From the sequence record LR597660: a stretch of 64,000 bases of DNA; one strand, 5' to 3'. The notes beneath the pieces were generated by a model. The model was not told the origin of the DNA and searched no databases. It saw only the letters and a list, made by a program, of their open reading frames with translations. This stretch comes from Escherichia phage T4_ev151. The position numbers and the translations under genes are program-made. Positions 3,440 through 4,576 of the stretch are shown piece after piece; positions within the stretch are counted from its first letter, which is position 1, and each line of letters opens with the position of its first letter.

Positions 3440-3511
3440 TGGCCCTGGGTGGAATTGAACCACCATCTGGCGATTATGAGTCGCTTGCTTGAACCTTCCA
3501 GCTACAGGGCC
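3440..3511 (-). tRNA. tRNA with anticodon CAT (T4 tRNA-Ile-like, lysidine-type, or Met)
   Basis: Manual fold: acceptor GGCCCTG/CAGGGCC, anticodon loop CTCATAA, T-arm GGTGG-TTCAATT-CCACC; CCA not encoded. Confidence 0.75.
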
Positions 3512-3517
3512 TTGATA

Positions 3518-3590
3518 TGCTGATTGACGGAATCGAACCGCCGACATCCTCATTACAAGTGAGGTGCTCTACCTACTGAGCTAAATCAGC
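3518..3590 (-). tRNA. tRNA-Thr (anticodon TGT)
   Basis: Manual fold: acceptor GCTGATT/AATCAGC, D-stem GCTC/GAGC, anticodon stem CCTCA/TGAGG with loop CTTGTAA. Confidence 0.85.
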
Positions 3591-3597
3591 GAAATTA

Positions 3598-3684
3598 CGG
3601 AGGCGATAGGATTTGAACCTATGAGTCGCCGGAGCGACTGCCGGTTTTCAAGACCGGTGCATTAAACCACTCTGCCACGCCTCC
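3598..3684 (-). tRNA. tRNA-Ser (anticodon TGA), long variable arm
   Basis: Manual fold: acceptor GGAGGCG/CGCCTCC, anticodon stem CCGGT/ACCGG with loop CTTGAAA, long variable arm, T-arm ATAGG-TTCAAAT-CCTAT. Confidence 0.85.
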
Positions 3685-3686
3685 AG

Positions 3687-3760
3687 TCTCCGTGGCAGGA
3701 TTTGAACCTACGACATTCTGCTCCCAAAGCAGACGCTCTACCAAACTGAGCTACACGGAG
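3687..3760 (-). tRNA. tRNA-Pro (anticodon TGG)
   Basis: Manual fold: acceptor CTCCGTG/CACGGAG, D-stem GCTC/GAGC, anticodon stem TCTGC/GCAGA with loop TTTGGGA; CCA not encoded. Confidence 0.85.
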
Positions 3761-3773
3761 TAAATTAAATTTG

Positions 3774-3844
3774 AGCGGATAATGAGAATCGAACTCACAT
3801 CATCAGATTGGAAGTCTGAGGTAATACCATTATACGATATCCGC
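3774..3844 (-). tRNA. tRNA-Gly (anticodon TCC)
   Basis: Manual fold: acceptor GCGGATA/TATCCGC, anticodon stem TCAGA/TCTGA with loop CTTCCAA, T-loop TTCGATT. Confidence 0.85.
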
Positions 3845-3850
3845 AAACTT

Positions 3851-3937
3851 TGGTACGAGAAGTGGGACTCGAACCCACAAGGAAATCATTCCGCAGCATT
3901 TTAAGTGCTGTGCCTTTACCAATTTGACCATTCTCGC
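3851..3937 (-). tRNA. tRNA-Leu (anticodon TAA), long variable arm, CCA encoded
   Basis: Manual fold: acceptor GCGAGAA/TTCTCGT, anticodon stem CAGCA/TGCTG with loop CTTAAAA, T-arm GTGGG-TTCGAGT-CCCAC. Confidence 0.85.
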
Positions 3938-3943
3938 GCTATA

Positions 3944-4576
3944 TTATTTATTACGTGAAAAAGACTGTTCTATCAATTCTGGACACTTTCGTTCTATCCA
4001 TTTTCTAGCTTTTTGTGGGCTTATACCTATTATTTTAGCAGCTTTACTAACCCATCCAAATTTAGAATAATCGATTTTAACTAATTCTTCGTAAATTTCA
4101 TCAGTTAAAATCTTTTCATTAATATTTACCAGTAAATGATATAATTTATTATCATTAGCAATTTTAATGAATCTTTTATAGTTTCCGCCTTTACTTAAAC
4201 CTAATGAAGTAATTGCAGATGATATAGTAGCCGAATTTAATAGTGCGTTTAAAATTTCTTCATCACTAACATTATAACGCTTTCTATTATTTTTAATATT
4301 TTTACCAGCAAAAGTATCAGTTTGCGAATGGCAATTTGGGCATAATAATCTTAAATTTGATTTAAGATGATTTTTGTTATTTCCATCAATATGGTCTAAT
4401 TGTAGAACAATATGCTTATTTTGCCATTTTGAAATTTTACAAATTGCACACTCATATGGAAAAATATTTTCTTTTATTATTTTGTCTTTCAGCTTTCCTG
4501 TACTAAAATTTGGATGTTTTCCTTCAAAAATTTCAGCTAATTTAGTATCCATAATATGATTCCCAATTATTAACAA
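3944..4576 (-). CDS. HNH homing endonuclease, abutting the 5-prime end of the tRNA cluster
   Basis: 210-aa ORF with HNH core LDHIDGNNKNH...NLRLLCPNCH and an upstream CxxC pair; stop codon 6 nt from tRNA-Leu. Confidence 0.8.
   Translation of the reverse strand: MLIIGNHIMDTKLAEIFEGKHPNFSTGKLKDKIIKENIFPYECAICKISKWQNKHIVLQLDHIDGNNKNHLKSNLRLLCPNCHSQTDTFAGKNIKNNRKRYNVSDEEILNALLNSATISSAITSLGLSKGGNYKRFIKIANDNKLYHLLVNINEKILTDEIYEELVKIDYSKFGWVSKAAKIIGISPQKARKWIERKCPELIEQSFSRNK

Follow-up and report, generated by a model that had tools for sequence, protein, structure and literature searches.

Which gene stands at the head of the tRNA operon of Escherichia phage T4_ev151 (sequence record LR597660), and what has become of the tRNA-Gln gene that opens this operon in T4? 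Phage tRNA genes are now regarded both as counter-defence tools against host anticodon nucleases and as codon-usage helpers, hence a change in the repertoire matters. In T4 (NC_000866), tRNA-Gln is the first of eight tRNA genes, 1 nucleotide (nt) upstream of tRNA-Leu and around 100 nt after the open reading frame (ORF) trna.2, and no HNH gene is present at the tRNA-Gln/tRNA-Leu position. A preliminary description of the 64,000-nt stretch analyzed here (the window) had given this T4 order, with eight tRNAs and Gln first, and the T4 record agrees; T4 itself does not have the arrangement of the window. There, a gene for an HNH endonuclease lies on the minus strand directly before tRNA-Leu, and our alignments make it nearly certain that this gene has precisely replaced tRNA-Gln.

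ARAGORN finds exactly seven tRNAs in the whole 64-kb window, every one on the minus strand. A permissive scan of positions 1500-6500 with the Rfam tRNA model gave the same seven matches (57-75 bits) and nothing else tRNA-like. Both programs return the set that had been folded by hand, i.e., six tRNAs in subcluster I (Leu, Gly, Pro, Ser, Thr, and one with a CAT anticodon) plus Arg after segB (Table 1). No tRNA-Gln, hidden or degenerate, was detected in 3840-4600 or in the rest of the window by ARAGORN, nor in 1500-6500 by the permissive Rfam scan, and the claim that this gene is missing from the cluster was thus confirmed. The operon otherwise keeps the T4 order, Leu-Gly-Pro-Ser-Thr-(CAT)/segB/Arg/rnaD/rnaC, behind the trna.4 to trna.2 ORFs. 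The first gene of subcluster I in T4, tRNA-Gln (UUG), is represented by its first 9 nt alone. We regard the chance of an artefact, either a tRNA-Gln missed by the finders or an assembly error at the junction, as negligible: the two detectors are independent and agree, both recover tRNA-Gln in T4 and in other loci, and the junction recurs, identical to the base, in one metagenome contig and in 63 records that were sequenced independently.

We then aligned the window with T4 and with the near-identical Gln carriers e11/2, Manna, and BF15. Collinearity extends through the leader and 8-9 nt into tRNA-Gln. In gene orientation, T4, e11/2, Manna, and BF15 read ...GAGAGCCTTTGTTAATAAT/TGGGAATTAGCCAAG...(tRNA-Gln)...TTATTCCCAG/C/GCGAGAATGG (tRNA-Leu), and the window reads ...GAGAGCCTTTGTTAATAAT/TGGGAATCA/TATTATGGATACT...(HNH)...CGTAATAAATAATATAG/C/GCGAGAATGG. 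The remnant of tRNA-Gln, TGGGAATCA in the window, is TGGGAATTA in T4 and in the carriers pSe_SNUABM_01 and teqhad. Homology comes back 3 nt before tRNA-Leu, at AG-C-GCGAGAATGG. The 6 nt that had been counted between the HNH stop codon and tRNA-Leu are indeed there, and the last three of them (AGC) correspond to the T4 Gln/Leu junction, i.e., the discriminator end of tRNA-Gln and the 1-nt spacer. Around 62 nt of the tRNA-Gln body are swapped for around 616 nt, which are essentially the HNH ORF alone. From a fixed anchor in the leader to tRNA-Leu, the distance is 117 nt in phages of the Gln type and 671 nt in carriers, the latter having gained a net 554 nt. As the 5' stub of tRNA-Gln is retained, tRNA-Gln was there first. 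The alignment thereby supports the earlier suggestion of an endonuclease-associated replacement or loss at the 5' end of the cluster, with the nuclease as its presumed cause.

A separate lesion affects the same Gln/Leu spot in Shigella phage Sf25 (MF327009; locus L024, 1519-1600), independently and without an HNH gene. A deletion of around 75 nt with GG microhomology has joined the first 19 nt of tRNA-Gln to tRNA-Leu from the anticodon arm onward, and the resulting Gln/Leu hybrid gene is annotated as tRNA-Leu, yet its acceptor strands are mismatched. The tRNA-Gln (UUG) gene itself exists as two alleles in Tequatroviruses, here taken from BF15 (L016, 3336-3409) and T4 (L001, 6458-6531). They differ in the loop and, through a fully compensated change, in the anticodon stem (T4, TAGCA-CTTTGAC-TGCTA; the other allele, CTGGA-TTTTGAT-TCCAG). 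When the leader-Gln-Leu junction is the query, the matches fall mainly into two groups, one of 132 records (identity of 99% or higher) and one of 312 (90-95%). These alleles might bear on evasion of anticodon nucleases or on variation of a nuclease target.

The protein encoded in place of tRNA-Gln combines an N-terminal His-Me finger (CxxC...DH...N...CPNCH) with a C-terminal helical part weakly resembling a helix-turn-helix (HTH). A mechanical reading of the ORF begins at a TTG at 4576. This is probably not the real start, since the ATG at 4552 is the one used by homologues and in GenBank annotations. The zinc-bearing His-Me finger residues C35, C38, H54, N66, C71, C74, and H75 are invariant in 30 homologues, and the protein has the beta-beta-alpha-metal core, catalytic His, conserved Asn, metal-binding His, and CxxC pairs of the His-Me finger superfamily. 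Residues from around 97 to 202 are confidently modelled as helical, and a motif near the C-terminus, GWVSKAxKIIGISPQKxRKWI, is well conserved. The C-terminal half shows a weak, non-significant likeness to homeodomain, HTH, or Tc3-type DNA-binding domains, and a role in DNA binding is plausible.

Of 50,697 GenBank phage records, 448 have the T4 leader-Gln-Leu junction and 63 have the cassette with both junctions, the whole query (100%) aligning in one piece at 98.1-99.7% identity in each of the 63. Protein matches of at least 95% (tblastn) are found in the same 63 records only. The cassette is thus a presence/absence polymorphism at one fixed locus with collinear flanks (63 vs 448), carried by around 12% of the Tequatrovirus records that have the locus. 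None of the 63 carriers keeps tRNA-Gln at the site, nor is it found elsewhere in the cluster of the carriers examined. A survey of IMG/VR with the trna.2 protein gave 7 loci, none of them with the cassette, and proved far less informative than the GenBank phage records. The arrangement is therefore not peculiar to the phage of the window and is already in public databases, where the protein is labelled "HNH endonuclease," "hypothetical protein," or "F-TflIV"; the exact protein is also present, beside more than 5,500 homologues, in a collection of 5.8 billion proteins, with labels that include "HNH endonuclease [Escherichia phage a51]." Our literature search returned general statements on HNH genes in tRNA arrays only, with no description of the replacement of tRNA-Gln by HNH and no report of super-Mendelian inheritance of the gene, and publications naming the T4_ev151 and ev240 records deal with unrelated topics, with no experimental evidence on the HNH gene.

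The cassette occurs, with identical junctions, in at least four cluster architectures. The window and, by collinearity, most of the top database matches have Leu-Gly-Pro-Ser-Thr-CAT/segB/Arg; vB_ECOLIGBLB0003 has the same set plus Tyr, with segB; a51, Ozark, and teqhad have ten tRNAs, including Tyr, Asn, and His, without segB; and the metagenome contig L105 has nine tRNAs, also without segB. Alleles lying only tens to hundreds of nt away assort independently of the HNH or Gln state. They comprise the leader hairpin loop, two trna.3 alleles (around 60% identity), an optional 516-nt ORF, two tRNA-Pro/Ser alleles, and a single-nucleotide polymorphism in tRNA-Leu.

The 516-nt ORF is inserted between trna.2 and the tRNA leader in a51 and teqhad (2434-2949 in each) and in Sf25 (918-1433), with or without the HNH cassette, and is absent from the window and T4. 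In Salmonella phage pSe_SNUABM_01, which is the best overall match to the region of the window, tRNA-Thr is absent and a hypothetical ORF of 483 nt (2715-3197) lies between tRNA-Ser and the CAT tRNA.

Selection and diversity were compared in six carrier genomes, over around 120 synonymous sites. The HNH ORF is intact in all six alleles, and 12 of its 13 variable sites are synonymous, the remaining one being an R/K change. Pairwise ratios of non-synonymous to synonymous diversity (pN/pS) are 0.03-0.08 for most pairs and 0.32 against a homologue of 68% identity. With 0.001, the pN of HNH is the lowest among five neighbouring genes. Our results show that the HNH gene is under strong purifying selection. 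Its mean pS is also low, 0.042 versus 0.09-0.12 for 57A, 57B, trna.4, and trna.2, and its G+C content is 26% versus 35.7% for the window. The element is found in different backgrounds and appears younger than its flanks, in what is a small sample. The low synonymous diversity, the low G+C content, and the mosaic backgrounds fit a single entry of the element followed by its movement among Tequatroviruses. With six genomes and the very high recombination rate of T-even phages, to which part of the pattern may be due, these comparisons are suggestive of homing rather than proof of it.

The same data bear on a passive origin, in which tRNA-Gln would have been lost by ordinary deletion or by SegB cutting and an inert or decaying HNH ORF would occupy the gap. 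SegB does have cleavage sites in tRNA-Gln and tRNA-Leu in vitro (PMC2330249), and the Sf25 deletion, which involves no HNH gene, indicates that the spot is fragile by itself. An inert ORF is difficult to reconcile with the intact alleles, the excess of synonymous changes, and the conservation of all catalytic residues. The ORF also fills the replaced segment almost exactly, and the same cassette is found in clusters without segB. We therefore hold a passive origin to be quite improbable.

The nearest named protein is HegA/F-TflIV of phage T5, at 34.7% identity over 80% of the protein (residues 24-192, E 6e-15, tblastn). Akulenko et al., in 2004, reportedly identified it as an HNH endonuclease encoded in the tRNA gene region of T5 (cited in PMC2330249 and PMC5714182). 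The homology extends beyond the HNH core, as the C-terminal W167 is invariant in an alignment including HegA. Full-length homologues at 68%, 58%, and 57% identity come from other, metagenomic T4-like phages. There the gene heads the tRNA array, at the syntenic spot behind the gp2-gp3-dNMP (deoxynucleoside monophosphate) kinase-57A-57B-trna.x block. In L017, the relative of 68% identity, HNH starts 14 nt after an intact tRNA-Gln (UUG), and the spacer contains AATTA, which is nt 5-9 of T4 tRNA-Gln. Three further full-length homologues (41-44% identity) are also located in tRNA arrays, where the next tRNA begins 6 nt past the stop codon or overlaps it by 10 nt. Location in a phage tRNA array and on the tRNA strand thus holds for the window, T5, and all six other full-length homologue contexts.

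The cluster of L017 contains three tRNAs only (Met, Gln, and CAT). Directly after its HNH gene, around 400 nt (4604-5010) include a part that matches rnaD of the window and of T4 (CAAGTCGTCG-ACTGA-GTTCCCTGTT).

These relatives make it necessary to consider whether the HNH arrangement is the older one, tRNA-Gln having been gained in the T4/T2 lineage and never lost by the window. Related HNH genes do stand at the same syntenic position, after trna.4-trna.2 and before the array, in the three diverged T4-like metagenomic phages. But the closest of these has an intact tRNA-Gln in addition to its HNH gene, and in carriers the leader is still followed, in register, by exactly the first 8-9 nt of tRNA-Gln, which is hard to explain unless the tRNA came first. 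Moreover, the cassette shows less divergence than the flanking sequence and an atypically low G+C content, and Gln-type records are seven times commoner and include T4, T2, T2L, and the RB phages. An ancestral HNH arrangement is, in our opinion, very improbable.

In phage tRNA arrays, HNH genes have been described as recurrent core genes and as the protein-coding genes with the widest distribution, and those of phage and mycobacterial arrays were proposed to generate diversity of the tRNA repertoire (PMC5966550, PMC6409571). Together with the conserved position of the 57-68% homologues in distant T4-like phages and with the very strong purifying selection, this recurrence speaks for a domesticated HNH protein, kept for a benefit to the phage, the loss of tRNA-Gln being tolerated. 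Such a protein could amplify or reshuffle the tRNA/anti-defence locus through recombinogenic nicks, or else exclude the markers of competitors or act on host DNA. SegB was recently shown to promote amplification or reshuffling of the tRNA/anti-defence locus against Septu (PMC13096335). On the other hand, carriage by around 12% of the records, in a presence/absence pattern, is typical for selfish elements, and the low G+C content and reduced synonymous diversity suggest a recent spread. Domestication, which is compatible with homing, is unlikely as the explanation of this locus.

We also observed a positional regularity in this clade. A profile-guided scan of IMG/VR gave 80 loci, and in 73 of them tRNAs lie no more than 1.5 kb away. 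Many of the relatives found in this way have a length of only around 87 amino acids (aa) and consist of the HNH domain alone. A same-strand tRNA starts between -25 and +15 nt from the HNH stop codon in 28 of 84 unique loci. Among these 28 abutting tRNAs, 13 are tRNA-Leu, versus 13.7% of all tRNAs at the loci (binomial p=3e-5, uncorrected for relatedness). The window, with its HNH stop codon, 6 nt, and tRNA-Leu (UAA), fits this rule, of which we know no earlier description. A family that specifically follows tRNA-Gln was considered and rejected, as Gln lies immediately upstream in 2 of 7 other full-length contexts only (L017 and L021); abutment on a downstream tRNA-Leu is the stronger regularity and the one with statistical support. 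A tentative extension, which we rate as possible but rather doubtful, is that of a widespread, tRNA-gene-specific clade of HNH homing endonucleases to which the many ORFs of around 87 aa would also belong. As their place of insertion, its members would use exactly the 5' end of a tRNA gene, preferably tRNA-Leu, and this tRNA would serve as target, as homology arm, and as the RNase P-made 3' end of the mRNA. Neighbouring tRNAs would be added, deleted, or swapped on the way, tRNA-Gln being the one erased here. If true, such a clade would drive the turnover of phage tRNA repertoires.

How the HNH gene came to take the place of tRNA-Gln is, with some confidence, explained by active homing of a free-standing HNH endonuclease whose target would be the Gln/Leu junction, an explanation drawn from comparison of sequences. 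The leader contains TGCTTTA (4659-4653), 12 nt, and then TATTAT (4640-4635), a motif that resembles a MotA-dependent middle promoter of the T4 type, and a hairpin at around 4576-4599. By folding, the overall structure of the leader RNA is not unusual (z=-0.34), and a scan for sigma-70 promoters and terminators found sites no more numerous than in shuffled sequence. Transcribed from this conserved leader, HNH would be the first cistron of the tRNA precursor. The GGGA in the tRNA-Gln stub, 8 nt before the ATG, is a possible weak ribosome-binding site, and RNase P acting at tRNA-Leu would make the 3' end of the HNH mRNA, 6 nt past the stop codon. During mixed infection, the protein would nick or cut cassette-free genomes in or beside the tRNA-Gln/tRNA-Leu junction. 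Recombinational repair off the carrier genome would then copy HNH in and tRNA-Gln out, and carriers would be immune through the absence of the Gln half of the site. The first insertion probably took place at the Gln/Leu boundary, a situation comparable to that of L017, where HNH follows an intact tRNA-Gln. A deletion between short AATTA repeats may afterwards have removed the tRNA body, which, as a conjecture, would yield the TGGGAATTA-TATTATG seen in pSe_SNUABM_01 and teqhad. The phage would now depend on the host tRNA-Gln for its CAA-rich genes, CAA making up 69% of the Gln codons in the genes of the window. T4 tRNA genes are dispensable on laboratory hosts, and the cost of losing tRNA-Gln is probably small.

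Several observations weigh against active homing at this junction. The tRNA-Leu gene is essentially identical in carriers and non-carriers, so that a site wholly within tRNA-Leu would give no self-immunity, and the target site proposed here is a guess. No [tRNA-Gln][HNH][tRNA-Leu] intermediate was found in the 63 carriers or in exact-pattern scans of metagenome and viral contigs, where very few Tequatroviruses and a single cassette contig are present, so that the scans carry little weight. Free recombination among T-even phages and a sweep, without any homing, could yield both the mosaic distribution and the reduced diversity. The enrichment of tRNA-Leu ignores relatedness among loci. At the protein level, Foldseek with the HNH model gave no significant match, and the Pfam HNH profile (PF01844) scores the window protein at 17.3 bits (E=0.005), below its gathering score of 21.4. 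Several close homologues have a precomputed PF01844 match, and the low score is a sensitivity issue that is compatible with HNH membership.

Table 1. Features of the tRNA operon region in the T4_ev151 window, from the leader to the stable RNA genes
Feature	Position	Strand	Remarks
Leader common to T4	4566..4660	minus	around 95 nt, almost base for base
5' remnant of tRNA-Gln, TGGGAATCA	4557..4565	minus	alignments; 4 nt before the HNH ATG
HNH endonuclease ORF, 202 aa (MDTKLAEIF...)	3944..4552	minus	ATG 4552-4550, TAA 3946-3944
Spacer TATAGC, HNH stop to tRNA-Leu	3938..3943	minus	6 nt
tRNA-Leu (taa)	3851..3937	minus	ARAGORN, Rfam; now the first tRNA of the cluster
tRNA-Gly (tcc)	3773..3844	minus	ARAGORN, Rfam
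tRNA-Pro (tgg)	3686..3760	minus	ARAGORN, Rfam
tRNA-Ser (tga)	3597..3685	minus	ARAGORN, Rfam
tRNA-Thr (tgt)	3518..3590	minus	ARAGORN, Rfam
CAT-anticodon tRNA	3440..3511	minus	ARAGORN, Rfam; stands where T4 has tRNA-Ile
segB-like GIY-YIG homing endonuclease gene, 221 aa	2733..3398	minus	size and position as T4 segB
tRNA-Arg (tct)	2653..2729	minus	ARAGORN, Rfam
Homologues of T4 stable RNAs rnaD (~2531-2651) and rnaC (~2386-2524)	2386..2651	minus	alignment with T4; approximate coordinates

The segB-like ORF has Pfam matches to GIY-YIG and SegE_GIY-YIG, is assigned to homing endonucleases by PHROG, and parts the six-tRNA block from tRNA-Arg, like segB in T4. A terminator-like hairpin detected by the terminator scan (2313-2336) closes the operon. 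The CAT tRNA is an allele other than that of T4 and matches the tRNA of phage Ozark that RefSeq labels Ile2-CAT. Both this tRNA and tRNA-Arg (tct) are strongly diverged from T4 tRNA-Ile and tRNA-Arg, respectively, with differences in the D, anticodon-stem, and T arms and with the same anticodons; rnaD and rnaC, beside the diverged tRNA-Arg, are nearly identical to those of T4. The cluster of the window is a mosaic of tRNA alleles.

Just past the operon terminator, an ORF of 187 aa (1655-2218, minus strand) begins with MKTYAEFLTEAAK. Its sole match is PHROG 2280, of unknown function. Its start is similar to the leader that targets T4 internal proteins to the capsid from their N-terminus, and an 83-aa ORF (5582-5833) contains MKTYQEFIAEA. 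Judged by this likeness, the 187-aa product may be an additional injected internal protein.

The locus offers a clean natural example, in the best-studied group of phages, of how a selfish nuclease gene may remove one tRNA from an operon and how that loss may spread among relatives. With 63 carriers and hundreds of non-carriers, phages for crosses are available, and the Gln/Leu junction is a testable target for an uncharacterised relative of T5 F-TflIV. For the clade as a whole, the data suggest a positional rule, in which the HNH stop codon abuts the 5' end of a tRNA, often tRNA-Leu.

Among known systems, HegA of T5 is the closest in sequence. It has in common with the window protein the CxxC...DH...N...CPNCH core and part of the C-terminal region, and its gene, which starts 23 nt after tRNA-Ile2, is likewise part of a tRNA array and has the orientation of the tRNAs. 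In contrast to the window protein, HegA has an extra N-terminal HTH-like extension of around 60 aa and a shorter middle region. It belongs to another phage family (Demerecviridae) and has different tRNA neighbours, and no replacement of a tRNA is known for it.

The T4 SegB gene is a free-standing endonuclease gene among tRNA genes of the same operon, a copy of which is present in the window itself. SegB was studied by comparing T4 with T2L, RB1, and RB3, which lack segB; tRNA-Gln is among the genes of T4 and T2L. SegB cleaves inside tRNA genes, and when T4 is crossed with T2L the inheritance of segB is close to 100%, the T2L tRNA markers being lost. In that work, homing endonuclease genes in phage tRNA clusters were called "rarely observed" (PMC2330249). 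By analogy, SegB is a precedent and a mechanistic template for homing by the HNH protein. They differ in several respects: SegB belongs to the GIY-YIG family, which is catalytically unrelated to HNH; its gene stands between the CAT tRNA and tRNA-Arg, whereas HNH is at the head of the cluster; and homing of segB brings tRNA genes along, while the HNH cassette removes one.

The T-even mobA-E genes are also free-standing genes of the HNH family that lie between conserved genes and show presence/absence polymorphism. Gene-for-gene replacement is known among such elements, SegH and Hef being found in place of mobC and mobE (PMC2988022); as at our locus, one element takes the place of another sequence at a fixed position. 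Here, however, the replaced gene is a tRNA gene and not another endonuclease gene. A close relation to the T4 Mob proteins was considered and rejected, as T4 and the hundreds of other mob-holding, non-carrier Tequatrovirus records are absent from the 238 tblastn matches (E<=1e-5).

Finally, HNH genes in the tRNA arrays of mycobacteriophages and other viruses represent the same general phenomenon, which our survey of 80 loci fits (PMC5966550, PMC6409571, and Pope et al. 2014 as cited in them). Those reports are descriptive and concern other hosts, and neither a precise exchange of a tRNA for HNH in a T4-like phage nor a stop codon abutting tRNA-Leu is described in them. As T-even homing endonucleases are well known, and HNH genes of tRNA arrays no less so, the advance is an incremental one, and the HNH gene of T4_ev151 is a previously undescribed example of the HNH genes resident in tRNA arrays and, presumably, of the free-standing homing endonuclease genes of T-even phages.

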